This document shows, piece after piece, positions 5,380 to 31,237 of a stretch of DNA of 64,000 nucleotides. Made by a program: the position numbers and the translations under genes. The notes below the pieces were generated by a model. The model had not been told where the DNA came from. It did not search any database and worked only from the letters and a program-made list of their open reading frames with translations. Each line of letters begins with the position of its first letter. Position 1 is the stretch's first letter. Origin of the DNA: Gammaproteobacteria bacterium (GTDB taxonomy: Bacteria; Pseudomonadota; Gammaproteobacteria; Eutrophobiales; Eutrophobiaceae); the NCBI GenBank assembly GCA_965243205.1, contig CBDEUK010000002.1, positions 1,555,689 through 1,619,688 on the forward strand, written 5' to 3'.

Positions 5380-6831
5380 ATGATAATTCCGGGTTATCAA
5401 ATTCAGAAAAAAATTGGCCAAGGCGGAATGGCCACAGTCTATCTTGCGATTCAAGAATCTCTGGATCGTCCAGTCGTCCTAAAAATCCTTGATGCTGAGC
5501 GAATTGAATCTGAACAATGGACTGAACGTTTTTTGTCAGAAGGCCGTTTAGTTGCCTCACTTCGACATCCAAATATTATTACTATCTATGATATAGGTCT
5601 TGCTGAAGAACAACTCTATATTTCGATGGAATACATCGAAGGCGGTGATTTAAAAAAACGCATGAAAACCCCAATTTTGCCTAGCCAATGTTTGGACTAT
5701 TTAATCAAAGTTGGATCCGCACTCGATACTGCACATGCTCATGGTATTGTTCATCGCGATGTAAAACCTGCAAATATTCTCTTCAAAGACGATGAAACGC
5801 CTCTACTCACAGACTTTGGTATTGCCAAACAAATTGATGGCGACTTAGATTTAACCTCAACCGGGATATTTCTAGGTAGTCCTAACTATGTCAGCCCAGA
5901 GCAAGCGGATGGCCTTGCTGTCGATGGTCGCTCCGATATATATAGTTTGGGGTGTATCTTTTACGAAATGCTCACTGGTGATAAACCTTTCCCGTCCGAC
6001 TCTGTGATCGAAATCGTTATCAAACATAAACAAGCGCCAATTCCTGATTTGCCCCATGAATACCGTGCATTTCAACCACTGCTTGATCGTATGATGGCGA
6101 AAAAGTGCGAAGATCGTTTTCGTAACTGCCAGATTATGATTGAGTATATCCAGGAAATGCGTGATCGGATCACTACAAATAATCAAATCAAACCGGTATC
6201 CGAATTTGATGCAACTGTAGCAGAACGAATATCAGAACCCATTGAAACGGTTGCGGAACCAAAGAAAAATCTTAATCCAATTCTGATGGTCCTATTAATT
6301 ATTGCGTTTTCTATCAACATTATTCTGCATTTTGTTGAGAAAAGCATTTCTATGGGTGACTACAAGCCTAAGATAGCAACTCAATCGAACATCCCGATAA
6401 ACCAAACTGATTTAAAAGCCCAATCAGGTGTAGATACTTTATCAGGTAATAACTCACCTGGGCTTGCAGCAGAATCCGCTTCACCCGCAGTTCGCAGCGC
6501 TCTTATGTGGTTAGGAAAACAAAGCTTAGAAGAATTTAAGCTAACTTACCCTGCAAAGGATAATGCCTATTATTATTTCTCAAAATTGTTGGATATAGAA
6601 CCTGAAAATCAAGAAGCAAAGAATGGAATCATTATGATTGCAGAACGCTATGCAATCCTTGCTGAAAAGGCAATCGCTGATAACGACTATCAAAAGTCTG
6701 CGGCTTATATCAACATTGGTTTACAAATCGATCCAAACAATGCCAGCTTGCATTCTGTTCGGTCATTTATGCAGGAATTGGATCAACCTTCGGCCTGGGA
6801 TGCCATCAAAGGTATTTTCACCAAACAATAA
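5380..6831 (+). CDS. Hanks-type Ser/Thr protein kinase with one transmembrane helix and a C-terminal TPR-like domain
   Basis: GQGGMATVY glycine loop, VLK lysine, HRDVKPANIL catalytic loop, DFGIAK and SPE motifs. A TM segment LNPILMVLLIIAFSINIILHF is followed by TPR-like repeats. Confidence 0.85.
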   Translation: MIIPGYQIQKKIGQGGMATVYLAIQESLDRPVVLKILDAERIESEQWTERFLSEGRLVASLRHPNIITIYDIGLAEEQLYISMEYIEGGDLKKRMKTPILPSQCLDYLIKVGSALDTAHAHGIVHRDVKPANILFKDDETPLLTDFGIAKQIDGDLDLTSTGIFLGSPNYVSPEQADGLAVDGRSDIYSLGCIFYEMLTGDKPFPSDSVIEIVIKHKQAPIPDLPHEYRAFQPLLDRMMAKKCEDRFRNCQIMIEYIQEMRDRITTNNQIKPVSEFDATVAERISEPIETVAEPKKNLNPILMVLLIIAFSINIILHFVEKSISMGDYKPKIATQSNIPINQTDLKAQSGVDTLSGNNSPGLAAESASPAVRSALMWLGKQSLEEFKLTYPAKDNAYYYFSKLLDIEPENQEAKNGIIMIAERYAILAEKAIADNDYQKSAAYINIGLQIDPNNASLHSVRSFMQELDQPSAWDAIKGIFTKQ

Positions 6832-6841: not shown

Positions 6842-7360
6842 CTATTGATTGATAATTTCTTTCGCTTTATCTCGTTGAGTTTGTTCCCATTCACCGATTA
6901 ATTGCTTCATATCATCGATTGTTAAACCAGATAAATCTTCAGCTGTAATGGTTTCTGGTTCCTCTTCCTCCGGCTCAACTTCTGCAAGTTTCTCTTCAAC
7001 TTCCTCAAGTTCTTCTTCTAACTCATCAAGTTCACTTTTACGAGGTTTCGTCTTTTCCTGTTTAGACAATACCGATTTTGCCTTCTCACGGATACTTTCT
7101 TCATTGGCTATATTCAAAGAACTGTCACGTAATCTCTCTCTCTGCTCTTCGGAAACTCGAATACCGGTATCATCAACCAATTGGCCTGATTCAAATACAA
7201 AAATCCTGGGGCCTCTATCTCCCGTTCTGTACCAAGCAGGCGGCTTACCTGATAATTGAGTCGTACCAGTTTCAGAATCGGTCCATTGGTACATTCTAGC
7301 TTCAGCCGATATTCCAAATACCGTCAGAAACAGAATGAAAATACGCAAAGAGTTGATCAT
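6842..7360 (-). CDS. Secreted DUF4124-family protein with an acidic coiled-coil C-terminus
   Basis: Signal peptide, then the DUF4124 signature MYQWTDSETGTTQLSGKPP. The C-terminus is Glu-rich. Confidence 0.55.
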   Translation of the reverse strand: MINSLRIFILFLTVFGISAEARMYQWTDSETGTTQLSGKPPAWYRTGDRGPRIFVFESGQLVDDTGIRVSEEQRERLRDSSLNIANEESIREKAKSVLSKQEKTKPRKSELDELEEELEEVEEKLAEVEPEEEEPETITAEDLSGLTIDDMKQLIGEWEQTQRDKAKEIINQ

Positions 7361-7457: not shown

Positions 7458-8174
7458 TTAGGCTTCAATACACCTTAAATAAGCCTGTTCTAGCTCATCT
7501 ACACCGTACTTCTTGCAGCACTCATCGGGGGTCCCAATAAATTTCAGCCTAGCATTATGTAATATCGCCATACGATCACATAAGGACTGAACATCCGCCA
7601 ATAAATGGGTGCTAAAAAATAGTGTCTGACCCTGCTGCTTTAAATCCAGTAGGTATTGCTTCAGATACGCTCTAGCTTTAGGGTCTAAACCGCTCATCGG
7701 CTCATCTAAAATCAAACATTTTCGCTTGCTGAGTAAACTCGCGGCTAAACCCAATTTCTGTGCCATACCTTTGGATAATTGACCCACGGTTTTATCGAGT
7801 GCTCCAGGTGTTAAATCTAACGTATTAAGCATTTCTATAACTGACGATTCTTCGTATTCCAAACCATAAAGCTTTAGCATATAACGAATAAACTCACGGC
7901 CAGTTAAATAATAGGATGGAAGAAATTTTTCAGGTAAGTAACTCACATTTACCCGGGATGAAGTATTACTGTGTTCAACACCAAAAATATTAATCTCACC
8001 ACTTTCAAATAACACAAAATCTAATAAACATTTAATTAATGATGTTTTACCCGCACCATTAATTCCGACTAAGCCTAAGTATTCACCTTCAAAAACATTT
8101 AGATCGATTCCATCCAGAACCAATTGCTTTTGGTAACTTTTTTTAACTTGTTTAAATTCTAAAGCAGTGTTCAT
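7458..8174 (-). CDS. ABC transporter ATP-binding protein
   Basis: Walker A GINGAGKT, signature LSKGMAQKL, Walker B LILDEP. Confidence 0.85.
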   Translation of the reverse strand: MNTALEFKQVKKSYQKQLVLDGIDLNVFEGEYLGLVGINGAGKTSLIKCLLDFVLFESGEINIFGVEHSNTSSRVNVSYLPEKFLPSYYLTGREFIRYMLKLYGLEYEESSVIEMLNTLDLTPGALDKTVGQLSKGMAQKLGLAASLLSKRKCLILDEPMSGLDPKARAYLKQYLLDLKQQGQTLFFSTHLLADVQSLCDRMAILHNARLKFIGTPDECCKKYGVDELEQAYLRCIEA

Positions 8175-8212: not shown

Positions 8213-8241
8213 AAAAAAGCCCGCTTAACGCGGGCTTGTTG
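8213..8241 (-). terminator. Rho-independent terminator downstream of the pilin gene
   Basis: GCCCGC-TTAAC-GCGGGC hairpin. On the minus strand it is followed by an A-run on the plus strand, which reads as a U-run in the minus-strand transcript. Confidence 0.6.
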
Positions 8242-8261: not shown

Positions 8262-9050
8262 TTAGTAGATATACACTGCATTACAACTTTGTTGAGCGCC
8301 TTGAATATTCCATATTTGCTGAGCAGCACCACCCCCAGCAGGAGGAGCACCAGCTATAGTACATTGAGGATTTGCTGCAGAATTTACATCGACAACGATA
8401 CCAAATGCTCCACCACCACCGCCAGTAGCCGCCGTACCACGCATGATGCCTGTCTGAGGTAAAGAATCGTCAATTTTTACATCCAACTCTCTCAATACAT
8501 TTACAGGTATTTGTGTACCGAATGAAAAAATCAGTCTAGGTGCAGCCGCAGCACCTGCAGCTAACACATCATATTCATCAGAGGTTCCTAAAAGCACAGC
8601 TCCTTGGAAAGCATTTACAGGTGTTGCACCTGCAGCTTGGTAACCAGCAACGCCAATTGTAGAACCAGCTGCAGCACCAAAAGCGACATTTTGTCCTGCA
8701 TATAGCCCAGTAATAAATCCTGCATTCGATAGATGATGCCAAACGTTGACTGCTTCATCTAAACTGCCTCGATCTAACTGCCCGTTTCCATTACCTCCAT
8801 CTAAGTTATTCACGCCTATCGCATTTCGGGCATTATTCTGAGGCATATCACCAGGAATAGCTCTGTAGCGATCAATAAAACCATAGTAGGCAGCTTGGAT
8901 ACCTGAATTTTGATCGGCTAGGTTTCGTACTCTAGCACTGGTTATTAACTCCTGCCCTTTCAAAATACCGCCAAGTAATAGACCTATAATAACTAATACA
9001 ATCGCTATTTCTACTAAGGTAAAACCAGATTGTTTTTTTATACTAACCAT
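8262..9050 (-). CDS. Type IVa major pilin, unusually long (262 aa) and Gly/Ala-rich
   Basis: Class III leader MVSIKKQSG|FTLVEIAIVLVIIGLLLGG with Glu at +5. A C-terminal Cys pair forms a likely disulfide loop. A terminator lies downstream. Confidence 0.85.
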   Translation of the reverse strand: MVSIKKQSGFTLVEIAIVLVIIGLLLGGILKGQELITSARVRNLADQNSGIQAAYYGFIDRYRAIPGDMPQNNARNAIGVNNLDGGNGNGQLDRGSLDEAVNVWHHLSNAGFITGLYAGQNVAFGAAAGSTIGVAGYQAAGATPVNAFQGAVLLGTSDEYDVLAAGAAAAPRLIFSFGTQIPVNVLRELDVKIDDSLPQTGIMRGTAATGGGGGAFGIVVDVNSAANPQCTIAGAPPAGGGAAQQIWNIQGAQQSCNAVYIY

Positions 9051-9097
9051 ACTTTTTCTCTTTAAAAATTTATTAATAAGAACATTGCTATGCTTAT

Positions 9098-9113
9098 TGC
9101 AGTCATCATGCCA
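9098..9113 (-). promoter_or_regulatory. Candidate sigma-54 (-24/-12) promoter of the pilin gene
   Basis: The minus strand reads TGGCATGATGACTGCA, with GG and GC at the exact consensus spacing (TGGCAC-N5-TTGCW), about 45 nt upstream of the pilin ATG. Confidence 0.5.
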
Positions 9114-9253
9114 GAGTACAAGTCATTGATTATTAAGTAGAAACATATTTATATATAGTCTAAACTGGCAATATTTCATCAAAAGTTGTCGAAATATCAA
9201 CAGTTTTATTTTAGTTGTTTTTAAACAAACTCTTTAAAATATAACTAAACACA

Positions 9254-10564
9254 TTGCTTTTAAGCATAGGAAAAAAAGGATATGCAAACATGCAGTTTTC
9301 CAAAATAATAATCATTAAAGTCCTGATTATTTTTATTACCTTCTTCCTTTTTTTCAGTAACGCTGTTGGTTTGTTAGAAATGGGATGGATTACTAAACCA
9401 GATATATTTATTTCATCCAATTTTAGTAATCTCGGTGAACACTCGGTTTTGCAATTAGAAGTTTTCAGCTCACCTGAATTTTTCTGCCTTGTCATCATTG
9501 GAACAATACTAACCTTCGTACTACCAATGCTTAATCCTGTTATGGGATCTCTACTTACTTTTGTATGCATGATTCCACCTTTCATGATGCAAATTTACGC
9601 TGATCGAGGATTGTTTTTCTCAGGCAACATGGATCCGCTTATTCCTTTGGAATATACCTTCCTAATGATTCTAGTTTTATTCGTAGTAAACAATCTGGTT
9701 TCTTTATTCACCGAAATGAGACATAAACGATTAATGCTGGAATCATTCAGTCATTTTGTTCCTCCACAAATTGCTGAGCAGATTGCTAAAGACCCTGCAA
9801 ATGTCAACATGAAAGGACAAGCTAGAGAAATGACGGTTATGTTTACTGATCTCGTCAGTTTTACAGATGCATCGGAGCGTCTTAACTCGGCTCAAGTAAC
9901 CTCTTTACTCAATGCTTATTTCAATGAAATGACGGATGTAATTTATCAATTCCAAGGCACTATTGATAAATACATGGGGGATTCGATTATGGCATTTTGG
10001 AATGCTCCTATTACTCAAACCGATCATGCAAACCGTGCTATTGAAACCTGCTTTGAAATGCATAAACGAATCGAAGAAATCTCGGCTGATTTCAAAAAAA
10101 GAGGGTGGCCAGCTCCAGAAATGAGTATTGGTATTAATACAGGCATGATGAATGTTGGCAATATGGGATCAAAATATCGAATTGCATACACGGTAATTGG
10201 TGATGCAGTAAATACAGCTTCTAGAATTGAAAACTTAACACGGTTTTATAAAGTGCCTACCATTGTTACTAAAACAACAATGGAAAGTGCTTCTGGTTTT
10301 TTATACAGAGAACTTGACCAAGTCGCTGTTAAAGGTAAAAAAAATAAGGTTCAAATCTATGAACCTGTATGCAAAAAAGGCGAAGCAAATGAATCTATTT
10401 TAAAGAAAATTCAAAATCATGAAATAGCTCTCAAATACTACTTTAATGGTAATTGGATTGAAGCTAGACAAAAGTTTGAGAACTTGTTATTCGATTATAG
10501 AGATGACTATTATGAAGTAATGATTAGTATTATTGATCGTGAATATCAAATGTACTTAAGATAA
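9254..10564 (+). CDS. Membrane-anchored class III adenylate/guanylate cyclase (CyaB-like)
   Basis: About 5 N-terminal TM helices, then a cyclase domain (MTVMFTDLVSFTD ... YMGDSIMAFWNAP ... GINTGMMNVGNMG). Confidence 0.7.
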   Translation: MLLSIGKKGYANMQFSKIIIIKVLIIFITFFLFFSNAVGLLEMGWITKPDIFISSNFSNLGEHSVLQLEVFSSPEFFCLVIIGTILTFVLPMLNPVMGSLLTFVCMIPPFMMQIYADRGLFFSGNMDPLIPLEYTFLMILVLFVVNNLVSLFTEMRHKRLMLESFSHFVPPQIAEQIAKDPANVNMKGQAREMTVMFTDLVSFTDASERLNSAQVTSLLNAYFNEMTDVIYQFQGTIDKYMGDSIMAFWNAPITQTDHANRAIETCFEMHKRIEEISADFKKRGWPAPEMSIGINTGMMNVGNMGSKYRIAYTVIGDAVNTASRIENLTRFYKVPTIVTKTTMESASGFLYRELDQVAVKGKKNKVQIYEPVCKKGEANESILKKIQNHEIALKYYFNGNWIEARQKFENLLFDYRDDYYEVMISIIDREYQMYLR

Positions 10565-10567
10565 TAT

Positions 10568-11293
10568 TTAATCTTTCAATTTCGATTCCAACTCACTTAA
10601 GCGATTATGTAAAAAACGTAATTCATGCTCATCTTTAATTTCACCAGACTCTAGGAAACCCCCTATCAATATTTTTGCACTTTCAAGCTGATCCAATTCT
10701 TCCAGTATAAATAATTCCATTTGTGTTGCCCAAGCAGGCGCAGCATCATACGAAGTATTTTCTCTTAGAAGTTTAGCAAAACTCAAAGCCAAATCTAAAT
10801 CTTTAAGTTCGTATTTAGCTACATAAACACAATACGCCATCCATCGCCATCGTTGATTAGGCTTTTTTAAATATTCATCCTTAACAAAATCCAACATGAT
10901 TTTTTTCTTAATAGTGTTATCCACTCTAGAATAAACGCGGCTTGCAGTTAATAAGGGATATTGAGATTTATTGTCTAATGATTGAATCAGGCCCAACCAC
11001 TCTTTGATAATAGAATAGTTGAGTTCCTTAAAACTTAAACTAACACCGGGTTGATTATCAAACGCTTGCAGCCATAGCATAAGTGTTTTTGAAGCAATTA
11101 TGTTATCGGATAAAGCAGGTAATAAATAGTAATATGAATTAGCAGGTTTTGTTAATTGTTCAATTTTTAATTGGGGCTTTATGAAATAAAGATGAAAAAT
11201 AACTTGTAGCGCTAAAAATAATACCAATCCAATAATGTAGTGTTTTGGAACATATTCAACTGGCCTTTCCCTATTAGTAGTTAGTATATACAT
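10568..11293 (-). CDS. Membrane-anchored hypothetical protein
   Basis: 241 aa. One N-terminal TM helix, a helical soluble domain, and a coiled-coil C-terminus. Probably in an operon with 11299..12069. Confidence 0.35.
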   Translation of the reverse strand: MYILTTNRERPVEYVPKHYIIGLVLFLALQVIFHLYFIKPQLKIEQLTKPANSYYYLLPALSDNIIASKTLMLWLQAFDNQPGVSLSFKELNYSIIKEWLGLIQSLDNKSQYPLLTASRVYSRVDNTIKKKIMLDFVKDEYLKKPNQRWRWMAYCVYVAKYELKDLDLALSFAKLLRENTSYDAAPAWATQMELFILEELDQLESAKILIGGFLESGEIKDEHELRFLHNRLSELESKLKD

Positions 11294-11298
11294 TTAAT

Positions 11299-12069
11299 TT
11301 AAAATTCCATTCGATACAGATCAAAAAGTGCTACAAATGAAATAAATGCGACATATATAATGCATTGAAGCATATTTAAGAAAATATCATTAAGATTAAA
11401 ACTACCATAAATTAGCCACGAAGTTTGCGCAAAATCATATAATGATGGAATAACAGTATCAATTATATCTAACGTCCAATTAATAAATTTATAAGAAAGA
11501 GTGTTCGTTTCTATAATTGGGCTATCACTAATTAACTGGATAATTTCCATATTTCTGGAAAGGATATAAAACGACATAATACTTACAAACGAAATAACCG
11601 TTTGCTTAAATGTAAAAAAGAATAACAAACTAAGTGCTATCACGATTAATAACTCACAATAAAACGATAGACACCAATAAATGACTAGTTTCAGAGGAAT
11701 ATATAACGCTAGACAAATTGCAAGAATAACTACTGCAATTAAACCAATCAACGCGTAGCCAACCAGCTTTCCAGTGTAGTACGTATGGCGTTTAATTGCG
11801 TGAGAAAATATATGCAACATTACTTTATCATCAAACTCTCTTGTCAAACTTGTTAATATAAATAAACTCAGCACTACGACTAAAAGAATTCTGGATGAAA
11901 AACTAATCCAAGCGGTGGCAATTTCTTTACTTTCAGTAATTGCGATTTCAGAGATAAATTCTGCTATTCCTAATAACAAAAGCAAGCCTATAATAAGGAA
12001 TAATAAGTTTTTATTTCGAACACTTTCTATGACAGTATATTTAGCAATGGCAAAAGAACTATTTTTCAT
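11299..12069 (-). CDS. Polytopic integral membrane protein (ABC-2-permease-like or unknown)
   Basis: 256 aa with about 6 hydrophobic helices. No catalytic motif recognised. Confidence 0.4.
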   Translation of the reverse strand: MKNSSFAIAKYTVIESVRNKNLLFLIIGLLLLLGIAEFISEIAITESKEIATAWISFSSRILLVVVLSLFILTSLTREFDDKVMLHIFSHAIKRHTYYTGKLVGYALIGLIAVVILAICLALYIPLKLVIYWCLSFYCELLIVIALSLLFFFTFKQTVISFVSIMSFYILSRNMEIIQLISDSPIIETNTLSYKFINWTLDIIDTVIPSLYDFAQTSWLIYGSFNLNDIFLNMLQCIIYVAFISFVALFDLYRMEF

Positions 12070-12109
12070 TATCTAATCCGATTCGCTCAATTTTCTAAAT
12101 TATAACGGT

Positions 12110-13786
12110 ATGAATAATAAGAAAACAAATTCTCGTTTTACATTACAAACCATTAGCCTAGTTCTAATGCTAGAACTATTACATTTAGCCGTTTGGTTTG
12201 ATTTTGGAAGCTTAATTTCAAAATCGCTTTTCTTAGCTCATTTTGGATTTTTCTTAATATGGCAACCAATCTGGCAGCAAAGTAAAAGCTTCACACTTGT
12301 AAATACCTCGGTTTTTATTACTGCTATTTTCTGTTTCGTTTACTGGATTAATTTATGGTTAATCGTCGGATGGGTTATTTTATTGGTTGGCTTTATAGGT
12401 GGCATTTATAAACAACGCCGTACAGAACATTTATTTTATATGTTTGTGTTGATATTTTTAATTTCTGAATTGTTAATTGGCTGTAACACACAAATATTCA
12501 ATATCGTATTAAATATTCAAGAACAAAAAATCTTCAGCTATGGAATGCTCTATATTCCTCTATTACTATTTTTATTTAAACAAGAAACGAAAAAACAACT
12601 TATATCTGTTGACCTATTAAGAGCGATTAGTAGCGCATTACTTATCAGTATATTGACATTAGGAAGCTTATTAGTGATGTACCATACTGGGACTAATTAT
12701 TTTAATGCGTTAATTAGAACAATATTATCTATTGCTGTAAGTCTTATTGTTATCAGTTGGTTATTATCACCAAAACTTGGTTTTAGTGGTTTATCGCAAC
12801 TCTGGTATCAATCATTATTAAATATAGGAACACCTTTCGAAAAGTGGTTGCACGATTTATACATGATCAATCAAAGAATTGATTCACCTGAATTATTTAT
12901 CGAGGAAACGATGGATGAATTAACAACTGTTAATTGGGTTTCCGGTATTGAATGGCAATTACCACATACTAAGAATAAAGCTGGCGAAGAAAGCAAATAT
13001 ACTATCCCTATTAAAATTAATGATCTAAATGTCACTTTTCATACACATATTCTTGCTGGAGGTGCTTTAATTTTACATTCACGGTTATTAATTAGGCTTA
13101 TAGAAAATATGTACACCGCTAAAGTACAAGAACATAAATTAGCACAACAAGCACATCTTAAAAATATACATGAAACTGGCGCGAGAATTACGCATGATAT
13201 AAAAAACCTTCTACAGTCACTAAATATGATGACTGCTATGGCTTCAAAAAATAATCTGGATACTGATAAAAAACAAAAACTTATTAATCAACAATTACCA
13301 AATATTTCTCAACGTTTGCAACTTGCATTGAATAAACTAGAAACACCAGACATTACTGAAGAAATAATTATTAAACCCATTAATAACTGGTTAGAAACTT
13401 TAAACTCTAGAATCGAATCAAATACAGTTACTATTCATTCTGATATTAGAAGCAATCATCCTATCCCTATGAGTATGTTTGATAGTGTCGTCGATAATCT
13501 ACTAGAGAATGCCTATTTTAAGCAGCAATTAGATAATTCGATTAAAATTGAAATAACTGTTATTAGTAATGAAAAAGAAATCTCTATTCGCTTTGCTGAT
13601 AACGGAGATGCAATACCACAATATATAGCTGATAGATTGTTTAATGAAATAATTGCCTCAGAATCAGGCTTAGGTATAGGTTTATACCAAGCCGCTAAAC
13701 AAACAAAGCAAAACGGCTATGATTTTATTCTCTCAAACAATACTAATGGGAAGGTTGAATTTTCACTTATAAGAGAATTAGGGTAA
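12110..13786 (+). CDS. Polytopic sensor histidine kinase (PilS-like)
   Basis: About 6-7 N-terminal TM helices. H-box ITHDIKNLLQSL, N-box DNLLENAYF, G-boxes FADNGDAIP and ESGLGIGLY. Confidence 0.7.
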   Translation: MNNKKTNSRFTLQTISLVLMLELLHLAVWFDFGSLISKSLFLAHFGFFLIWQPIWQQSKSFTLVNTSVFITAIFCFVYWINLWLIVGWVILLVGFIGGIYKQRRTEHLFYMFVLIFLISELLIGCNTQIFNIVLNIQEQKIFSYGMLYIPLLLFLFKQETKKQLISVDLLRAISSALLISILTLGSLLVMYHTGTNYFNALIRTILSIAVSLIVISWLLSPKLGFSGLSQLWYQSLLNIGTPFEKWLHDLYMINQRIDSPELFIEETMDELTTVNWVSGIEWQLPHTKNKAGEESKYTIPIKINDLNVTFHTHILAGGALILHSRLLIRLIENMYTAKVQEHKLAQQAHLKNIHETGARITHDIKNLLQSLNMMTAMASKNNLDTDKKQKLINQQLPNISQRLQLALNKLETPDITEEIIIKPINNWLETLNSRIESNTVTIHSDIRSNHPIPMSMFDSVVDNLLENAYFKQQLDNSIKIEITVISNEKEISIRFADNGDAIPQYIADRLFNEIIASESGLGIGLYQAAKQTKQNGYDFILSNNTNGKVEFSLIRELG

Positions 13787-14707
13787 ACGCCCTGCTTGAA
13801 CAAGTTTGCTTTTTAATACCTGAGGGGAAATCCATATAATTTGATCATCAATACCAAGTTGACTTATACCTCCTGCGACAGCACCACCAGGCGACACAGC
13901 TGGCCCAGGGTTTATATAATTAGATAATATAAATATTCCATCAGAATCGCTATTTTCAGCTTCATTGCATAAAAAAGCTGGTGTTGGTGTATCTATTAAT
14001 CCTGTACCTGGATTTAAGGTTCTAGTGACATTTTCTCCATGCGAAACAACAACAGCAAATACATCTTGTGCCACCGGAACAAATGGCGCTACACAAACGG
14101 TTCCATCTTGTATAGTGATATTTCCTACAGGACACATGTCAATCGTCGCTAAATTCTCGGTTGAATTTAATGGGCAATTAACAGGAACGCTTATAGGATT
14201 AAGATTACCAGGGGTTCCAGTGCCAACAAAATCAGCCACATAATCCATAACAGAATATGTAAACCAACTTTCCCATTCATCAAATTCTCCAACCCCTAAA
14301 GTAACCCAAGGTAAATTGCCCTCAATAGGTAATACTCCTTGATTTCCATTGCCAAGCACAGCTGGGGTAGGATCAGCAGCACATTGTTGTGTACCGGCAG
14401 GACCAGGAATTAAATCTTCAGTACCATCATTTAAATTACCTACAGCAACCAAATTGCAGCTTCCAACTCCTGCATTTCTGCAATCAGGACATGGCAATCG
14501 ACCATTCGTTATAGCAAAACCATAAAGAGCTTCTTCAATTGTTTTCAAGCTTTCTTCTGTTTTAACACGCCGCTCTTGTTTTATTCCTTCTCTTAATGGA
14601 ACTAATAGTCCTGCAAGTAGCAAACCCATAATTACTAGGACAACGGTCATTTCAACTAAAGTAAAACCTGTTACTTTCTTTAATATAGTGTTTGATATTT
14701 TATTCAT
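13778..14707 (-). CDS. Large Cys-rich type IV pilin-like protein (minor pilin)
   Basis: Prepilin leader KKVTG|FTLVEMTVVLVIMGLLLAGLL. 309 aa with more than 10 Cys. The start overlaps the upstream gene by 4 nt. Confidence 0.7.
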   Translation of the reverse strand: MNKISNTILKKVTGFTLVEMTVVLVIMGLLLAGLLVPLREGIKQERRVKTEESLKTIEEALYGFAITNGRLPCPDCRNAGVGSCNLVAVGNLNDGTEDLIPGPAGTQQCAADPTPAVLGNGNQGVLPIEGNLPWVTLGVGEFDEWESWFTYSVMDYVADFVGTGTPGNLNPISVPVNCPLNSTENLATIDMCPVGNITIQDGTVCVAPFVPVAQDVFAVVVSHGENVTRTLNPGTGLIDTPTPAFLCNEAENSDSDGIFILSNYINPGPAVSPGGAVAGGISQLGIDDQIIWISPQVLKSKLVQAGRLP

Positions 14708-16770
14708 GGTTGAGTGGTATTTAGCATTATATTAATTTGATCATTATAGGAATTTGATAAAAGCTGTTTATCAAAATTTAAATTGCCGAGCCCTCCAATA
14801 CTTTCAAAATAATCTGTGAAAGTTGTATTAGGTCTTGCCGTTGGGTTTGGCGCTACTGCTGGTGTTAAATCCTGTCCAGCAATCATAAGTAAAACTCTAT
14901 TATCATTAATTTGATTTAGCCCATTGGAAGTTAAATTCAAGCAATTACCACCTGCACCTGGCACACAAATCGCTGAAGGAGGAAAAGCAGAGTTTATAGA
15001 ACCTGGCAATGGTTCTACAACCAAAACTGGATAAGCAACATAAACCATATGATGCCAATTATTAGCCACAAACCATGTTGGTAATACCGGAGGAGATTCA
15101 CCAACTGATGAATATGATGAATCACCATCAATATCAATTCCTAATGTATCAATATGATGATCAAGATTATTTATATTCATCGTTGTAGTGGGTGGAAATG
15201 GAACTACTCCTTGTACTGTTAATGTAGATTGTCCAAGTTGTACAGGCGGATTAGGGTTAATAGTTCCTACATCAGTAATTTGGATAGTCAGCTGATTTGG
15301 AAAGTTTCCATTGATACTAAGATTACGTCTCAAATGGGCTGCAGCAGTGGGAGGAATATAATTTACGTTTGAACCATCATCTGTGTATGTAATAGAGTAA
15401 GTTCTTACAAAATTATCATAGCATGTACCAGTATTATCGTTTATACAAATCGTTGTTGAACTAATATCAGATGAACAATTGAATGTATTACGTCCAGCAT
15501 TAATAGCGGAATTCCAAACACAATTAATATTATTTACTCCTAAAGCACCTGCAGTCATAGGAGAATTAATAGGAAAACCTGCGGGTGGAGGTATTATATT
15601 CACACCGCAATTTAGTGGGAAGTCATTCGTGCTACAGTAATAAGTCTCAATGCAATTAGAATCCGTTAAACAACTGACATTTGGATCAGCGGGATTAGGC
15701 CCGACAAAACCTGCGGCTGGCAGTCCACTCCAACTAGCATCAAAATTAACTGAAGCAATATTATAAACCGTATTATCTACAAAAACTGGTAACTGACCAA
15801 ATGTAGTGTTTATGACACCTAAAGAATTTACATCAGCTGTTGTAGGATCAAATGGTTTTAACCACGGTAATCCATATACATCATCACAATTAAATGGAGC
15901 AATTAGACAATTTGGATCATCATCAAAAAAATTATTATCGCCATCATCATCAACGCCATTAATATTTTGATCATCCCTATCTGGATCTATTCGATAATAT
16001 CTCAAGGCACTCGTTGCTTCATTTAGTACTCTTTTTTCTACCGCTTTCATTAACTCTTGGCGAGTAATTACTAATATTCGATCATTAAAATTTGTACCAT
16101 CATCACCAGGAAGAAAAGAAATAAAGTTTCTATCATTACCATCTGAATTTACTGAATCTAAATAGGCTGTATAGTCATTTACACCTAGTATTCGGTTTTG
16201 ACCAGGTAATGCAGCACCAGGAGAAAAGATAATCGCAACAATATCTGGGCCATTAATATTGTTATCAACAACAAAAGGCCCATCAATATTTGCAATGGCT
16301 TGATCGTCTGAAATAGTATCGCTGTTATGATTAGGATTAACAGGTAATGCACCAGTATTCCTATAATTGTCGGCTACCACGTACCATAAATGTTCTCCAG
16401 AACCATCTTGTAACTCTTCTATTTCCAAAGTTTTATAGGGTAACCAACCTACTGCACCTCCTGTAGAAAGATTTCCACACCCAAGATTATTAGTTTGTCC
16501 ATCATCATTATTATCTGGACATGGCAAATAACCTGGGCCTCTTAAAGTTGTAGCACCGGTTCTTTCTGGTACTGATACAGCATATGCAATTAATGCCTCT
16601 TTAGCCCTTTGGAGAGCATCGTAGGTTTTTTCTATATTTTCACGGTCACGAACTTTTGCATTAAGCTTTGAGACAAGTAGAAAAGATGAGCCAACAATCA
16701 TTACTAGCACGAAAGCTAATAACGCTGCGCCTCTTTGAGATTGGATTTTATTGTTTAGGCTAAACAACAT
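14704..16770 (-). CDS. PilX-N-like pseudopilin fused to a large Asn/Asp/Pro/Cys-rich extracellular domain (candidate pilus tip adhesin, MshQ/PilY1-like role)
   Basis: The N-terminal motif QSQRGAALLAFVLVMIVGSS has a PilX/MshP-type QRGA leader and no Glu5. An Asp-cluster DPDRDDQNINGVDDDGDNNFFDDDPN looks Ca-binding. 688 aa. Confidence 0.5.
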   Translation of the reverse strand: MLFSLNNKIQSQRGAALLAFVLVMIVGSSFLLVSKLNAKVRDRENIEKTYDALQRAKEALIAYAVSVPERTGATTLRGPGYLPCPDNNDDGQTNNLGCGNLSTGGAVGWLPYKTLEIEELQDGSGEHLWYVVADNYRNTGALPVNPNHNSDTISDDQAIANIDGPFVVDNNINGPDIVAIIFSPGAALPGQNRILGVNDYTAYLDSVNSDGNDRNFISFLPGDDGTNFNDRILVITRQELMKAVEKRVLNEATSALRYYRIDPDRDDQNINGVDDDGDNNFFDDDPNCLIAPFNCDDVYGLPWLKPFDPTTADVNSLGVINTTFGQLPVFVDNTVYNIASVNFDASWSGLPAAGFVGPNPADPNVSCLTDSNCIETYYCSTNDFPLNCGVNIIPPPAGFPINSPMTAGALGVNNINCVWNSAINAGRNTFNCSSDISSTTICINDNTGTCYDNFVRTYSITYTDDGSNVNYIPPTAAAHLRRNLSINGNFPNQLTIQITDVGTINPNPPVQLGQSTLTVQGVVPFPPTTTMNINNLDHHIDTLGIDIDGDSSYSSVGESPPVLPTWFVANNWHHMVYVAYPVLVVEPLPGSINSAFPPSAICVPGAGGNCLNLTSNGLNQINDNRVLLMIAGQDLTPAVAPNPTARPNTTFTDYFESIGGLGNLNFDKQLLSNSYNDQINIMLNTTQP

Positions 16771-16820: not shown

Positions 16821-17357
16821 TTAATTTTGAGCTTCAGAATCTAAAGTTTCTGGAGTATAGGTTTCGCCAACTTTGAGTGTAACATTGGTTTTATTATCGG
16901 GTAGTTTTACCGTAACACTATCATTATGAATCGTACGATTCTTCACAGTAATATTTTCTTCGATCATACCACCTTCATAGGTATTATTATCATTTATCCA
17001 AACGGTATTATTCCCTTTTTTACGTGAAACAATTCCCTTTAAGCTAATAGGTTCTTTAAGCACTTCAACCTCTTCTACTTCTTCCTCTTCCCAAAAGAGG
17101 CCTTCTTCTTCAAAGCCTTGAGTAACTTCTTGTCCTTCAGCAGTAATAGCTTGTTCATCTTTTACTTTAGAAGGATCTTTAATCTGAACGTCTTCGTATT
17201 GAGTAACGTGATGCTGAGATCTCATAGGTTTTGATATTCGTAAATCCTCCAACATGGAACGTTGTGCCGGTGAAGTAAACAAACGACCTAGCTGATCAAC
17301 ACTATGTACTGATGTTGAAACTAACATTAAAACCAGAAATGAATAAAATACTTTCAT
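16821..17357 (-). CDS. Small secreted acidic protein (MshK/PilP-like position)
   Basis: Signal peptide MKVFYSFLVLMLVSTSVHS and a Glu-rich linker EEEEVEEVEV. The assignment rests on position only. Confidence 0.35.
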   Translation of the reverse strand: MKVFYSFLVLMLVSTSVHSVDQLGRLFTSPAQRSMLEDLRISKPMRSQHHVTQYEDVQIKDPSKVKDEQAITAEGQEVTQGFEEEGLFWEEEEVEEVEVLKEPISLKGIVSRKKGNNTVWINDNNTYEGGMIEENITVKNRTIHNDSVTVKLPDNKTNVTLKVGETYTPETLDSEAQN

Positions 17358-17369
17358 AATATCAAACCA

Positions 17370-18017
17370 TTAAATCGATAACTCTGTACCATCACTTTTT
17401 TTAATATTAAACCATTCCAGTTCACACTTGGCATCTACATTACTAGTGGTAGTACTACGTTTAATCACATCATTTTTTCGAACCAGTTCACAGCTACGTA
17501 TCGAATAAATTCCATTAGCATTCTCATTTAATTTTTGCATTAGATTGACTAAATCACCTTCATGTAAAAGCTGTAAATTAAGATCCATGCTACTGACATA
17601 AACTTTAAAACTACCTTGTGTAACAGGAAAACGATTATCGTATTCTGTTTGGGAGTTAATTTGGTAGCCTACTGAAGGGATCTGAATTTCTTGCCCTAAA
17701 TTCCTTAATGTTTCTATCCAATTTAGGCGATGTTCACGACCAATAATGCCTATTTCATATAATGCAGCATAACTTGGATAAAAGTCCCGAATATTTTTTT
17801 CCTCTTGATCCACGGCTAAGTAACGTTGGCTAATATTTTGAAATTGCGTTTTATGTTTACTGTATTCTGCAAACATTTCACCACGAAAATAGTAGCTAAA
17901 CCAGATCATCAAAGCTGCGATTGCGATGCTAACCAATAAAACAATTAAAGCGCCACGTATCATTGAAAATTCAATGTTACTATTTGTACTCTCACTCATT
18001 GGGCACCCCCAAAGCAA
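17370..18017 (-). CDS. PilO/MshJ-like inner-membrane pilus assembly protein
   Basis: Single N-terminal TM helix (IVLLVSIAIAALMIWF) followed by a periplasmic domain. Lies between the PilM/N-fusion gene and the secreted protein. The real start is likely the internal MSEST. Confidence 0.45.
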   Translation of the reverse strand: MLWGCPMSESTNSNIEFSMIRGALIVLLVSIAIAALMIWFSYYFRGEMFAEYSKHKTQFQNISQRYLAVDQEEKNIRDFYPSYAALYEIGIIGREHRLNWIETLRNLGQEIQIPSVGYQINSQTEYDNRFPVTQGSFKVYVSSMDLNLQLLHEGDLVNLMQKLNENANGIYSIRSCELVRKNDVIKRSTTTSNVDAKCELEWFNIKKSDGTELSI

Positions 18018-19599
18018 TTCTTAATGTAAATTTAGCTTCTTTTTCTAGTTTTTCTACACTACCTTGCAAACTTGCTTCAGAACTAATATCCATAGGAAAT
18101 TCTTCGACTGTAACACTTTCAATATTTTCTTTACTTCTTAGTGCTTCGGCAAGATCATTCACCGTTTTAATCGCTGTTCTAAAGTCACCATTGAAATTGG
18201 CTATGCGGGCTTCAAAAGTCGCTATTTGATAGTAAAGATTACTGTTTTGGTTTTGTATATAATTCGCTACGGGTATAGTCGCATATAGATTTGTAACCGC
18301 TCGTGAATTTTGAAACTGATCATTTGGATCTAAGCTATGGTTCCATTGTAAATTTTCCAGAATAACTTGAGGATACATTTTTAAACTTGAACCAATAACT
18401 TTTAATATAGGTTCAGGATCCGTTTTAAATTTTTCTAAGTTACCCGCTATTTCAACCACTGTTTTTATATCGTTAGGTTCAATGGGCGTTTTAGGAAGAC
18501 CTTCTCGTGCAATATTAAATCGCTCTTGATAAAACTCCGTTTTCTTTATTGCTGACATGCTATCCTGCTTATAACTCACTGCGTTCATCAAAAACCAACC
18601 ACTCAAAATTGTACTGCTTAATAATAACAATGCACTTGCAGCATACATGCCCACACGCATTTTGCGCATAGTGGAGTAGCGAACCTCATTGGGATTAGCA
18701 TAGGCATTTTTGGCACCTTTTTTAAATAAATGATAAGCAAATAACTTATCACTAAATGGTGTTTTTAAAGAAAAATCCGTATTAGCGATTTTCGCCATAT
18801 AATTTAAATCGATCAATTTATAAGAGATAGATTCGGTATCTTGTAGTTTCTCTTTTAATTCTTTAAGCAATTCACCTTCAGTTAAAAAATAGACGTTTAA
18901 TTGTTCATCATTGCTCACTAAACGCATACTGTTTAAATAGCGGTAAATTTTTTCTATTTCTGAAGAAATGATTGGACCATAAGGTGTTGTGCCGTAACGT
19001 GGCATTTTTACCATACGGCTTATTTTTAAGTCTTCACCTTGAAAAAAAGACTGTCTTAAGCCACTGACGCTCTGCATAGTGACTAATAAGGTTTTTTCTT
19101 GTCGGTTAGGTAAAAATTCAAGAATGTTCTTACTGAATAAAGCAACTGATGTAACAGAGACAACTGGGTATTTATATTTTTCTAACAACTGTAACCAAGG
19201 TTTAACATACGATGTCTCACCAATTGAAGACAGTAAGACATTATCATCGCGTCTTCCTTCAGCTTCTCGGTTTTGAGTTTCGTCATAAACATAATCAGCA
19301 CCACGAAACAATCGTTCTTTTTTCCGATCTAATACAGCTTTACGATCACTACCATAAACATGAGGAATAGTGTCTAAACGAAATTCTTCTTCAGCAACGT
19401 CAACTAACACATAAGTCGTTTCAGGGTCTGATTCAGATAGATAACGTTCAAATTGAATTCGACCATTCTCCTTAGTATCAAATAAATATGAATTGATAAT
19501 TTCTCCTCGATACCATTGATAGGCAACCATCTTCTCAGCGCCTAATAAGATTACTCGTCTAGGAAAAATATCAATAGTCGATTTTAGTAATGAGATCAT
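17992..19599 (-). CDS. MshI-like pilus assembly protein (PilM-like cytoplasmic domain fused to a PilN-like TM/periplasmic domain)
   Basis: 535 aa. One TM helix near residue 330 (VGMYAASALLLLSSTILSGWFL). The architecture and position after the platform gene resemble MshI. Confidence 0.5.
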   Translation of the reverse strand: MISLLKSTIDIFPRRVILLGAEKMVAYQWYRGEIINSYLFDTKENGRIQFERYLSESDPETTYVLVDVAEEEFRLDTIPHVYGSDRKAVLDRKKERLFRGADYVYDETQNREAEGRRDDNVLLSSIGETSYVKPWLQLLEKYKYPVVSVTSVALFSKNILEFLPNRQEKTLLVTMQSVSGLRQSFFQGEDLKISRMVKMPRYGTTPYGPIISSEIEKIYRYLNSMRLVSNDEQLNVYFLTEGELLKELKEKLQDTESISYKLIDLNYMAKIANTDFSLKTPFSDKLFAYHLFKKGAKNAYANPNEVRYSTMRKMRVGMYAASALLLLSSTILSGWFLMNAVSYKQDSMSAIKKTEFYQERFNIAREGLPKTPIEPNDIKTVVEIAGNLEKFKTDPEPILKVIGSSLKMYPQVILENLQWNHSLDPNDQFQNSRAVTNLYATIPVANYIQNQNSNLYYQIATFEARIANFNGDFRTAIKTVNDLAEALRSKENIESVTVEEFPMDISSEASLQGSVEKLEKEAKFTLRIALGVPNE

Positions 19600-20776
19600 A
19601 AATAGGTCCTAAAACTGACAACATTATCCAACCAACAATTAACCCTAAAAATAGAGTCATCATCGGTTGCACCATCGATTGTAAACGTTCGATTGCTTCG
19701 CGCACATCGCGAGAATAAAAATACCCAACATTATGTAATGATTCTTCGAGTGCCCCGGTATTTTCTCCTACTCGTATCATTCTAAGTACTAATGGTGGAA
19801 AGAGATTTGTAGACTCAAAAGCATTGCTCAATGTAGCACCATCGGCTATTTGTTGTCCGACTTCACGCATCGCTTTTGAAACGACTTTATTACCAGCAAT
19901 CTCTTCACCAGTCCGAATACATTCAATAATGGTAATACCAGATGCATACATAATGGCAAAAAAACTCGTCAATCGAGTTAAAATAAGTTTTTTAAAAATC
20001 GGGCCAATGATTGGCAGCTTCAATTGAATGGCATCAACCGTCTCTTGGAAATCATCATTAGTTTTATAACTAACAATAGCAATAGCAATTAAAATAACAG
20101 GTAAAAAAACAACTACATACCAATAATCCACAAAGAAATTAGACACTGCTATTAATACTTTAGTATGTGTAGGTACCTCTTGTCCCATAGTTTTTACAAA
20201 CAGTAGTAATTCGGGTACAACAAAAATCATCAAGAATGTTATTGCAGCAAACACAAGCGTGCCAACAATAATTGGATATATAAATAGTTTCTTAGTGTGA
20301 GCCATTTGCTCATCTTGCCACTTTAAGTTTTCACCCAACTTTTCAAAGATGGTTGATAGATCACCTGTCTGTTCACCTGCTTTCACTAAGTTTGTGAATA
20401 CATTACTAAACACTGCGGGAAACTGTTGCATGGCTTCAGATAATGTTTGACCACCTTCGACCAATTCGATCATCGCAGTAAGTACTTCTTGTAAACGTGG
20501 GTTATCAGTACTGTCACGTAAATCTTGCAAACTATCGAGAATAGGCACGCCTGCCCGTGAGGTTTGTTCTAAATGAAAACACAACGTAATTAAGTCACGA
20601 CGATTAACACCTTTACCAGTTAAGCTAGAACCTCTGGTATCAATCTCTTTATAGTTGATGAGATCCAGTCCCATCTTTTTCAAACGCATTTCTAAATCAG
20701 CAACATTAACTGCGTCAGCGTTTCCATTATGAATGGAGCCAGATTTATCAATTGCTTTGTATTCGTAGAAAAACAT
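19571..20776 (-). CDS. Type IV pilus / T2SS platform protein (PilC/MshG/GspF family)
   Basis: 401 aa with two GspF repeats and 3 TM helices. Motifs include MIELVEGGQTLSEAM and MIRVGENTGALEESL. Confidence 0.9.
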   Translation of the reverse strand: MFFYEYKAIDKSGSIHNGNADAVNVADLEMRLKKMGLDLINYKEIDTRGSSLTGKGVNRRDLITLCFHLEQTSRAGVPILDSLQDLRDSTDNPRLQEVLTAMIELVEGGQTLSEAMQQFPAVFSNVFTNLVKAGEQTGDLSTIFEKLGENLKWQDEQMAHTKKLFIYPIIVGTLVFAAITFLMIFVVPELLLFVKTMGQEVPTHTKVLIAVSNFFVDYWYVVVFLPVILIAIAIVSYKTNDDFQETVDAIQLKLPIIGPIFKKLILTRLTSFFAIMYASGITIIECIRTGEEIAGNKVVSKAMREVGQQIADGATLSNAFESTNLFPPLVLRMIRVGENTGALEESLHNVGYFYSRDVREAIERLQSMVQPMMTLFLGLIVGWIMLSVLGPIYDLITKIDY

Positions 20777-20778
20777 TT

Positions 20779-22509
20779 CTATTTCTGAACTATACGTTTG
20801 GTTAAATCGACGACTCTTGATACTTCATCAATACTGGTTGTGCCATCTAAAACTCTATCCGATCCTACGTCGGCTAATGTTTTAAACCCTTTGGAAATCG
20901 CCATACGTAAAATTTCACCTTGAGTTCCACCACGGGCAATTAAGTCATCTATATCATCATCGAGTCTCAAAATTTCTAAGATTGCTACTCGACCTTTATA
21001 ACCTGTGTTATCACATTTATCACAACCTTTAGCCTTATAGACTTGTTTATCTTTATCACCAGAACGCAGTCCAAGTAAGTTACGTTCTATATCAGTAATC
21101 ACATAAGGTTCTTTACAATGCTCACAAAGCTTTCGTACTAAACGTTGAGCTAAGATACCAATAATATTTCCGGATAAGATATCGGGTTTAATGCCAATAT
21201 CTAATAGTCTAGGCATGGCACCAACGGCCGAATTGGTATGCAATGTTGAAAATACTTGGTGACCAGTCATAGCAGCACGAAATGCCATGTTTGCTGTATC
21301 TTCATCACGAATCTCACCGACAAGAATAATATCAGGGTCTTGACGCATGATAGAACGGATACCATTAGCAAAATCCAAACGTCCAGATTCTTGCACTGAG
21401 CTTTGACGAATCATTGTTGTTGGGTATTCAACAGGATCTTCCAACGTCATGATGTTAACTTGTTCAGTATTTAAATAATTTAACACCGAGTAAAGCGTGG
21501 TGGTTTTACCACTACCCGTTGGACCCGTAACTAAAATAATACCTTGAGGTCTTGCCACCATCACTTTTAAAGCATTAGATGCTTCATCATTCAACCCAAG
21601 TTTCTCTAAAGAAACGATACCTTTTTGTCTGTCAAGTACACGTAGAACGATGTTCTCTCCATGTACCGTCGGTAAAGTTGAAACACGAAAATCAACTTGG
21701 CGACCTGAAAGCGATAAAGAAATTCGACCATCTTGTGGTGCGCGAATTTCGGCTATATCAAGATTAGCCATAACCTTTAAACGTACAGCAATGGCCGACC
21801 AATAATTTTTATGTAAGCTTCGAATTTGACGTAATACGCCATCAATACGATAACGAAACCGTAAGAAACCTTCTTCTGGTTCAAAGTGAATATCCGATGC
21901 ACCGCGCTTTACTGCATCTGATAGCAATGAATTCACTAATCTAACAACAGGCTGGCTGTATTCTTCTGTATCCGCATCAAGACTTTGATAATCAATTTCA
22001 CCGGATTCAATCTCTCGTAAAATACCATCAACGGAAAGTTCGAAACCATAAAACTGATCCAATGCCTTTTCGATCTCAGCTTCACCTGCAAGCACTGGAA
22101 CAACGTCAGTCGATCGACCAACGACAGCATCTAATTGATCTAATGCTACAACGTTATAGACATCTGCCATTGCAACCGTTAGGCGATTATTAACGGCATC
22201 GAACGTTAAAGGTAACGCTCTTAACCTTCTTGCTAAATCTTTAGGTACCATTGCGATCGCTTCAGGATCGGCAACGGAACGACTGAGATCAACAGTATCA
22301 CGACCGATAACACCACCAAGAATATCATTGATAATGGCTTCGGTTGCGAAACCTAATTTAACTAAGATACGGCCAAGATGTTCTTTACTTTTTCGTTGCT
22401 CGGTTAAGGCAATTTCGATTTGATCGCTGGTTGCAACACCACGGCGAATAAGCATTTCGCCCAGTCGTAAACTCTTTTTAGGCATCTTAGTCATTAAACT
22501 TTCCATCAA
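20779..22509 (-). CDS. MshE-type pilus extension ATPase (GspE family) with an N-terminal c-di-GMP-binding MshEN domain
   Basis: Walker A GPTGSGKTT, Asp box, His box, and a tetracysteine CEHC..CDKC. The N-terminus has tandem motifs RLGEMLIRRGVATSDQIEIALTEQ and HLGRILVKLGFATEAIINDIL. Confidence 0.9.
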   Translation of the reverse strand: MMESLMTKMPKKSLRLGEMLIRRGVATSDQIEIALTEQRKSKEHLGRILVKLGFATEAIINDILGGVIGRDTVDLSRSVADPEAIAMVPKDLARRLRALPLTFDAVNNRLTVAMADVYNVVALDQLDAVVGRSTDVVPVLAGEAEIEKALDQFYGFELSVDGILREIESGEIDYQSLDADTEEYSQPVVRLVNSLLSDAVKRGASDIHFEPEEGFLRFRYRIDGVLRQIRSLHKNYWSAIAVRLKVMANLDIAEIRAPQDGRISLSLSGRQVDFRVSTLPTVHGENIVLRVLDRQKGIVSLEKLGLNDEASNALKVMVARPQGIILVTGPTGSGKTTTLYSVLNYLNTEQVNIMTLEDPVEYPTTMIRQSSVQESGRLDFANGIRSIMRQDPDIILVGEIRDEDTANMAFRAAMTGHQVFSTLHTNSAVGAMPRLLDIGIKPDILSGNIIGILAQRLVRKLCEHCKEPYVITDIERNLLGLRSGDKDKQVYKAKGCDKCDNTGYKGRVAILEILRLDDDIDDLIARGGTQGEILRMAISKGFKTLADVGSDRVLDGTTSIDEVSRVVDLTKRIVQK

Positions 22510-26155: not shown

Positions 26156-26411
26156 CGATTGAGTCCTTATAGATTATCTTTCACATTATAATAGCACGAT
26201 AAATTCATGTGAATTAAGGATTTTTTGCTTATTTTGCTTAACTTATGACCAGTCGACAAAATTCGATAATAGTAGCCTTATTCTCGAAAAAAATTCGCAG
26301 CAACAAGAATTCTATTCAGGATTTATTCCAAATAAAAAATTAATAAACCACAACGGCTGATATTGATTATAACTTCGCCTAAATGTTATTAAATTCTTAT
26401 AAATTTGCAAA

Positions 26412-31215: not shown

Positions 31216-31237
31216 GTTGTTCACCTCCAAACAATAT

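Follow-up and report, generated by a model that had tools for sequence, protein, structure and literature searches.

What drives transcription of a pilin gene that lies at one end of a long pilus cluster, when the one candidate regulator is encoded at the other end and a membrane-bound histidine kinase stands in between? The question is raised by a stretch of 64,000 nucleotides from a Gammaproteobacteria bacterium (assembly GCA_965243205.1, contig CBDEUK010000002.1, positions 1,555,689 to 1,619,688), called the window below, in which a cluster of 21 kb, almost wholly on the minus strand, encodes a pilus of the mannose-sensitive haemagglutinin (MSHA) type. The original prediction held that the 262-aa pilin belongs to a regulon controlled by RpoN and an enhancer-binding protein (EBP), with this kinase and this regulator as its two-component system. 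Phylogenetic footprinting and gene co-occurrence support that proposal, with the polytopic kinase and the sole EBP of the window as the likely pair. The model in full is that the MSHA-like pilus encoded by the assembly genes at 13.8-27.3 kb has the 262-aa pilin as its structural subunit, and that the pilin gene would be transcribed as a short unit from a sigma-54 promoter, with the cluster regulator bound to upstream dyads, a bend introduced by integration host factor (IHF), and a kinase with eight transmembrane (TM) helices as the input. We put its probability at roughly three in four.

The elements on which this reading rests are the following; those around the pilin form the distal end of the cluster.

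8217..8237, minus strand: strong intrinsic terminator hairpin after the pilin gene (8-bp stem with 6 GC pairs, then a T run)
8262-9050, minus strand: type IV pilin of 262 aa, probably the major subunit
9113..9098, minus strand: sigma-54 (-24/-12) promoter element TGGCATGATGACTGCA, occurring once in the window
9131..9119, minus strand: IHF-like site AATCAATGACTTG, ending 5 nt before the -24 element
9181..9166, minus strand: activator site dyad 2, degenerate TGATGAAATATTGCCA, centred about 61 nt upstream of the -24 GG (near -85)
9202..9187, minus strand: activator site dyad 1 TGTTGATATTTCGACA, centred about 82 nt upstream of the -24 GG (near -106)
12110-13786, plus strand: sensor histidine kinase of 558 aa, with a HATPase_c domain
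27323-28771, minus strand: NtrC-family response regulator and sigma-54 EBP, with REC, Sigma54_activat and HTH_8 domains

The sigma-54 promoter-like element with exact GG/GC spacing that had been claimed upstream of the pilin is indeed present. Its GG and GC are 10 nt apart in a TGGCAC-N5-TTGCW-like context, and it ends 47 nt before the pilin ATG (9050), which would place the start of transcription near 9087. When the whole window was scanned with an RpoN weight matrix, an approximation of the published consensus, this site was the top match at 17.4 bits. The next-best matches, at 14959, 18652 and 39728, fall inside coding regions and none is credible. There is no rpoN gene in the 64 kb, and the genome presumably carries one elsewhere.

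The related loci carry the argument further. A genome scan with the 535-aa assembly protein of the cluster as query yielded 80 loci over the span from pilin to regulator. Nearly all are metagenome-assembled genomes; the single isolate, and the only cultured carrier found, is Methylohalomonas lacus HMT 1. The pilus system is widespread in mostly uncultured sulfur- and methyl-cycling Gammaproteobacteria. A -24/-12 element, sought as GG-N10-GC in a TGGCAY...TGC context, precedes the pilin in each of the 22 scan loci that have the kinase and extend over the pilin gene (2 of the 22 were assigned by eye). It ends 37-57 nt before the pilin start, in loci whose GC content ranges from 37 to 71%. The same element stands before a neighbouring pilin in three distant members of the kinase family, with 23-26% identity in the sensor region, in one of which the pilin and kinase genes are direct neighbours with divergent transcription. 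As a control, the best sigma-54 site in 280 nt around each gene start was scored in up to 81 loci per gene: the pilin had a median of 15.0 bits, and the medians of 19 other cluster genes lay between 0.9 and 6.2 bits.

Alignment of the upstream regions on the -24 element brings out two further conserved features. The first is a pair of dyads with the consensus TGTCGAnnnnTCGACA, of which the second lies 21 bp downstream of the first in the window and 19-23 bp from it in most loci, with centres that lie between 61 and 117 nt upstream of the -24 GG. An exact match to TGTYGANNNNTCRACA is found once in the 64 kb, at dyad 1; matches with one or two mismatches appear in the window at about the chance rate, and none is a credible further dyad. 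The second is an IHF-like consensus, WATCAANNNNTTR, matched with at most one mismatch in 14 of 21 aligned promoters, always ending 5-7 nt before the -24 element. The sequence thus displays the GG-N10-GC context, its recurrence at the same position in orthologous promoters, and upstream activator sites. Taken together, the predicted dyads, the IHF-like site and the -24/-12 element make up the standard architecture of an enhancer-dependent promoter, whose activator sites commonly lie some 80-150 bp upstream, frequently with an IHF site interposed; the regulator would bind the dyads and IHF the site between.

As to the activator, the gene at 27323-28771 encodes the only sigma-54 AAA+ domain in the window, as had been claimed. 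Its product combines a receiver domain (PF00072), the AAA+ domain (PF00158, 218 bits) with the Walker A motif GESGSGKE and a GSFTGA loop, and a Fis-type helix-turn-helix (HTH) domain (PF02954), the make-up of an NtrC-family EBP. The phospho-acceptor is probably the Asp in ALVDLG. The recognition helix of the HTH, NLSKAARLLGINRTTL, is nearly invariant among orthologues, which fits the conserved dyad. By sequence score the protein is indistinguishable between PrsR (TIGR02915, 332.3 bits) and NtrC (334.4 bits), and it falls below the curated PrsR cut-off of 502.6 bits, so that it cannot be counted a PrsR.

Is the regulator linked to the kinase? Among the loci that cover both positions, both genes are present in 34, both are absent from 5, the regulator alone occurs in 2 and the kinase alone in none (Fisher p = 2.8e-5, uncorrected for phylogeny). 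The loci devoid of both fall into at least 3-4 separate branches of a neighbour-joining tree built from a single protein, MshE. Two loci are instructive in this respect: L017 and L077 have lost regulator, MshM, kinase and cyclase and have kept permease, 241-aa protein, pilin and ABC ATPase, and upstream of their pilin no -24/-12 element was found at the conserved position. The MshM-like ATPase gene is lost along with the regulator. The repeated joint loss of regulator and kinase, joined by loss of the promoter in L017 and L077, which keep the pilin, is in effect a deletion experiment made by nature. In L077, the region upstream of the pilin (19040-19170) contains repeated GTTCAT-N6-ATGAAC palindromes and, some 200 nt ahead of the start, a weak GG-N10-GC (TGGTACCCTAATAGCA); control of the pilin there may have passed to a different activator.

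Several observations weigh against this interpretation. With the approximate sigma-54 matrix, 3% of shuffled windows reach 17.4 bits somewhere, and by chance a window would be expected to contain the degenerate pattern TGGCAYN6TGCW 0.56 times; within the window alone, the single site is not significant and does not go beyond chance. It is the position of the site, and its conservation in related loci, that make it more than chance. The regulator has GSFTGA where the canonical loop is GAFTGA; among orthologues GAFTGA occurs 30 times, GAYTGA 10 times and GSFTGA 3 times. The co-occurrence of regulator and kinase points to a functional link rather than to direct phosphotransfer, and the locus counts are not independent of phylogeny. 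Lastly, L052 and L053 have the regulator, but there the cluster ends after the 309-aa pilin, so that the distal module is either elsewhere or missing.

The pilin itself has the features expected of a structural subunit. It passes both models of the prepilin N-terminal methylation site (PF07963, 30.8 bits against a cut-off of 21.2; TIGR02532, 23.9 against 16.3). Its leader of eight residues is short and basic, with G-1, F+1 and E+5 followed by a hydrophobic N-terminal helix, and the N-terminus, MVSIKKQSG followed by FTLVEIAIVLVIIGLLLGG (FTLVE...), is typical of type IVa pilins. At the C-terminal end, Cys230 and Cys256 would form a disulfide; a C-terminal Cys pair is found in 23 of 23 orthologues examined. 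Leader, G-1, Glu5 and a C-terminal Cys region like that of type IVa major pilins thus occur together. Within the clade, the first ~55 residues of the mature pilin are almost invariant. An Rfam search for a riboswitch or other RNA in the pilin leader found none between 8 and 14 kb.

The kinase is less familiar. In an AlphaFold model with a predicted local distance difference test score of 77.6, residues 2-218 form eight membrane helices with very short loops, followed by a small alpha/beta domain (242-312), a long DHp hairpin with His362 (THDIKN) and a canonical ATP-binding domain. A fold search of the PDB matched the DHp-CA core alone, e.g., in HK853 and WalK, and is uninformative on the membrane sensor. 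In 40 homologues the residues of the H, N, G1 and G2 boxes are invariant, as are, among many membrane residues, H25, W29, W51-Q52-P53, W88, G94 and G98. No Pfam match to HisKA or PAS was obtained at E <= 1, and the sensor region, the first 336 residues, matches no Pfam or NCBIfam family even at E <= 10. The best family is PrsK (TIGR02916), at 53.7 bits against a cut-off of 300, and the alignment is confined to the catalytic core, with kinase residues 341-537 on model positions 463-660 of 679; the protein is not a PrsK. An exhaustive search with the sensor region gave ~370 clusters at 50% identity, in which full-length members (~540-610 aa) share one architecture with the sensor domain at the N-terminus, while shorter matches look like fragments. 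Given the unmatched sensor, the sub-threshold match of the core and the size of this group, we treat the kinase as a family of its own. The original prediction had called it PilS-like, with 6-7 TM helices; a histidine kinase it is, but the model has about eight helices and the protein is not a PilS homologue. It would work like PilS while standing outside the PilS family, and the term "PilS-like" holds by analogy only.

These elements suggest the following pathway. The 8-TM kinase, the only unpaired kinase nearby, would phosphorylate the regulator, which would then oligomerise on the two TGTCGAnnnnTCGACA dyads. IHF, bound at the site between dyads and promoter, would bend the DNA, and the AAA+ domain would remodel the closed complex of RNA polymerase and sigma-54 at the pilin promoter through its GSFTGA loop. 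The assembly genes would be constitutive or separately controlled, with transcription apparently of the sigma-70 type, since no sigma-54 site precedes them and an 11-of-12 sigma-70-like promoter lies at 26213..26185. We considered whether the regulator also activates the assembly operon and rejected this: in as many as 55 loci for each gene, the regions ahead of MshL, MshM and the regulator gene contain no sigma-54 site.

What would the kinase sense? Its periplasmic loops are nearly absent and its membrane domain is strongly conserved, so that it probably senses within the membrane. Among possible signals, the pool of unassembled pilin in the membrane would be the likeliest, by analogy with PilS (PMC6058289). 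Such an input fits a membrane domain that is conserved and free of loops, and also the N-terminus of the pilin, nearly invariant over 55 residues. It is tempting to propose that the 8-TM family evolved independently of PilS to gauge the pool of pilin N-terminal helices, or else reads the flux of a pilus-linked ABC transporter, a suggestion that we advance tentatively and with more doubt than conviction.

The second of these inputs deserves separate attention, as it leaves the circuit as described and changes only what is read. Bce-type intramembrane-sensing kinases read the state of an ABC transporter. Here, the kinase likewise lacks a sizeable periplasmic loop, and its gene and that for the permease point away from each other across a gap of 40 bp, an arrangement conserved in most loci; the kinase might thus follow the neighbouring transporter rather than the pilin pool. 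However, in the distant relative L087 the kinase lies directly beside the pilin with no ABC genes between or near, a layout that leans slightly toward the pilin pool, and in L017 and L077 the transporter is kept where the kinase is lost. Neither point is decisive, and we consider transporter sensing unlikely, with a real chance of being right nonetheless. In the same L087 (GCA_005503445.1), rpoN lies at 152-1585 with lptA, lptB and lptC, 8 kb from the kinase-pilin pair. The proximity is probably coincidental, and the gene shows that the L087 genome has sigma-54. A metagenome scan with the 525-aa protein of L087 found no relative.

It is also conceivable that the kinase is not the partner of the regulator at all, but signals elsewhere, the regulator being an orphan under some other kinase or a small phospho-donor. 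Indeed, 13.5 kb separate the genes, which lie on opposite strands and belong to different transcription units, and their pairing is predicted from sequence. Against this stand the 34 loci with both genes and none with the kinase by itself, their joint loss in several branches, and the synteny table, in which no locus has another response regulator gene in or beside the cluster. Moreover, the PrsK kinases, the closest catalytic relatives, partner with NtrC-type regulators (PMC1569441). We regard a mispairing as quite improbable. The only other kinase and regulator in the window form an adjacent LytS/LytTR pair. At 120-1162 (plus strand), the C-terminal end of a kinase, cut by the edge of the window, overlaps the start of a LytTR-type response regulator gene; this looks like an AlgZ/FimS-AlgR-like pair. 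Such pairs control minor pilin operons in Pseudomonas.

A further possibility is that the sigma-54 promoter is real but is activated by an EBP from elsewhere in the genome (a true PilR, FleQ or NtrC), with the cluster regulator controlling something else. Our view is limited to 64 kb of the genome, and the target of the regulator is assigned by elimination, as no sigma-54 site precedes the other cluster genes. Yet promoter and dyads vanish exactly where regulator and kinase have been lost (L017 and L077), the dyad and the HTH helix of the regulator are both conserved across the clade, and the arrangement persists in distant lineages; we hold an outside activator to be very improbable. That the GG-N10-GC arose by chance, with a sigma-70 promoter driving the pilin, is hardly credible, in spite of the shuffling figures above and of one weak sigma-70-like match at 9171..9142, given a motif whose position is fixed in 25 loci that differ widely in base composition, its absence from 19 control genes, and fewer sigma-70-like matches near the pilin promoter than chance would give (2 found, 4.5 expected).

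We return to the preferred model, in which the regulator and kinase of the cluster serve the pilin, and to the genes that separate them. The remaining features of the cluster are these.

7458-8174, minus strand: ABC transporter ATPase, always directly downstream of the pilin gene
9254-10564, plus strand: membrane-bound class III nucleotidyl cyclase (PF00211, 79 bits), whose true start is likely the ATG at 9290
10568-11293, minus strand: 241-aa protein with one N-terminal TM helix, encoded with the permease, without a family match
11299-12069, minus strand: ABC-2-type permease-like membrane protein (PF12698, 28.9 bits, just below the cut-off of 31.6), conserved in position
13778-16770, minus strand: two pilin-like genes, for a 309-aa prepilin and a 688-aa protein with a pilin-like N-terminus
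16821-26155, minus strand: MSHA-like assembly operon, encoding 178-, 215- and 535-aa proteins, GspF/MshG, MshE, a tetratricopeptide repeat (TPR) protein and the MshL secretin
26185..26213, minus strand: sigma-70-like promoter TTCACA-17 nt-TATAAT (11 of 12 positions matching), preceding the secretin operon
26412-27320, minus strand: MshM/ExeA-like AAA ATPase, whose gene start overlaps the stop codon of the regulator

A table of gene presence and order, built by tblastn across the scan loci, gives the same order in most of them: metF, regulator, MshM, MshL, TPR protein, MshE, MshG, the 535-, 215- and 178-aa proteins, the large pilin-like protein, the 309-aa pilin, the kinase (opposite strand), permease, 241-aa protein, cyclase (opposite strand), pilin and ABC ATPase. 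The kinase has hundreds of full-length homologues in uncultured Gammaproteobacteria, and the gene order in their contexts is identical; exact look-ups of the window kinase and of P0002 returned no recorded match. Therefore, the split layout, which had been thought unusual, is the conserved norm of the whole lineage.

Two other parts of the original description need amending. It had two unknown membrane proteins and an adenylate cyclase between the pilin and the assembly genes; the class III cyclase stands, and the unknowns turn out to be an ABC-2-type permease and its 241-aa partner, which belong with the ABC ATPase encoded directly after the pilin. Nor does the regulator simply head the assembly operon: its gene overlaps that for MshM, the two form a separate upstream unit, and the secretin operon has a sigma-70-like promoter of its own. 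The machine is nevertheless clearly of the MSHA type, with an MshL-type secretin (TIGR02519, 250.6 bits against a cut-off of 250.2) and an MshE ATPase that carries the c-di-GMP-binding N-terminal motif MshEN (NF053729, 56.2 bits against 38). The genes for the 178-, 215- and 535-aa proteins are unclassified. The 309-aa prepilin and the 688-aa pilin-like protein are probably minor pilins or a tip protein; the latter (14704-16770, minus strand) has no family match and counterparts of 345 to 1162 aa in other loci, and is probably a variable tip or adhesin subunit.

The cyclase is an optional part of the module. It is missing from L039, L050, L051 and L054, which lack nothing else and retain kinase, regulator and promoter, so that it is not needed for the circuit. 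Its gene is divergent from the pilin, and the enhancer region is common to both. Since the cluster holds both this cyclase (9254-10564) and, in the pilus ATPase (20779-22509, minus strand), the c-di-GMP motif, it may integrate two nucleotide signals.

Some neighbouring features may be recorded here. Beyond the regulator end of the cluster lie metF, ahcY and metK. The regulator gene begins 80 bp past metF (28771-28851), with a weak hairpin between, and metF and the regulator gene stay neighbours in most of the loci that extend to this point; transcription of the methyl-cycle operon might thus conceivably run on into the regulator gene. An SAH riboswitch (Rfam, 56.6 bits) lies at 31235-31341 (minus strand), ahead of ahcY-metF, and a gene for 6S RNA (SsrS, 66.4 bits) at 56531-56708 (plus strand). 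At the other end, the segment 4597-7360 encodes an Rsd/AlgQ-like protein, so named from the Pfam match of its counterpart in L001, together with a Ser/Thr kinase (5380-6831) whose C-terminal region is TPR-like, and an acidic secreted protein of 172 aa (6842-7360). These last two keep their position beside the ABC ATPase in L001-L005 and may belong to the pilus system.

How does this circuit compare with known ones? Two-component sigma-54 control of the major pilin gene is textbook for type IVa pili, in the form of PilS-PilR. For the classical MSHA locus, we know of no report of an EBP, a kinase or a sigma-54 pilin promoter in the literature we found, which is weak evidence of absence. The MSHA locus of Vibrio and Shewanella shares with the present cluster an MshL-type secretin, an MshE with the c-di-GMP N-terminal motif, MshG, an MshM-like ATPase and an MshN-like TPR protein. 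The pilin set, however, differs (262, 309 and 688 aa here), and the cluster described here also incorporates an ABC transporter and a class III cyclase.

By sequence, the closest system is PrsK/PrsR, for the regulator as co-best match. PrsK-PrsR and RpoN drive PEP-CTERM genes from an upstream motif (PMC1569441, PMC9850573), and in both systems a two-component pair with sigma-54 would drive single-gene operons for abundant surface proteins, from a motif ~60 nt upstream in that case. The kinase, regulator, TPR protein and MshM-like ATPase of our cluster have PrsK, PrsR, PrsT and TIGR03015 as best or co-best NCBIfam models, all far below the cut-offs (300, 502, 312 and 324 bits). These four best matches to families of the XrtA/PEP-CTERM system suggest accessory and regulatory paralogues common to both systems. 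The sensor region of PrsK is unmatched by our kinase, the predicted enhancer is the TGTCGAnnnnTCGACA dyad rather than a motif ending in TTTACA, and the target is a type IV pilin rather than a PEP-CTERM protein.

Functionally, the closest system is PilS-PilR with sigma-54 at pilA, which operates in Pseudomonas aeruginosa, Myxococcus xanthus, Geobacter and Dichelobacter (PMC6058289). Here as there, a polytopic kinase with minimal loops and an NtrC-type regulator would act on the -24/-12 promoter of a monocistronic major pilin gene, with tandem upstream regulator sites that contain TGTC (PMC6058289), binding being predicted in our case. The pilA region of M. xanthus even has ABC-transporter-like genes, pilGHI (PMC6060248). 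On the other hand, with PilS compared by family description only, our kinase has ~8 predicted TM helices instead of 6, no HisKA or PAS match and an unclassified sensor region. The kinase and regulator genes, adjacent in PilS-PilR, are separated by 13.5 kb and lie on opposite strands, and so they do in each of the 34 loci with both; orthology of the cluster regulator with PilR could not be established; and the machine is MSHA-like (MshL, MshE, MshM, MshN-like), not the PilBCMNOPQ type IVa apparatus. To our knowledge, sigma-54 two-component control of a pilin is new for an MSHA-type machine and for this family of kinases. The predicted regulatory map, comprising promoter, enhancer dyad, probable IHF site, regulator and kinase, is complete and testable. 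If the sensor domain detects pilin, autoregulation of pilin arose more than once, and an intramembrane kinase with sigma-54 feedback would be a convergent, general design of type IV filaments rather than a peculiarity of PilS.

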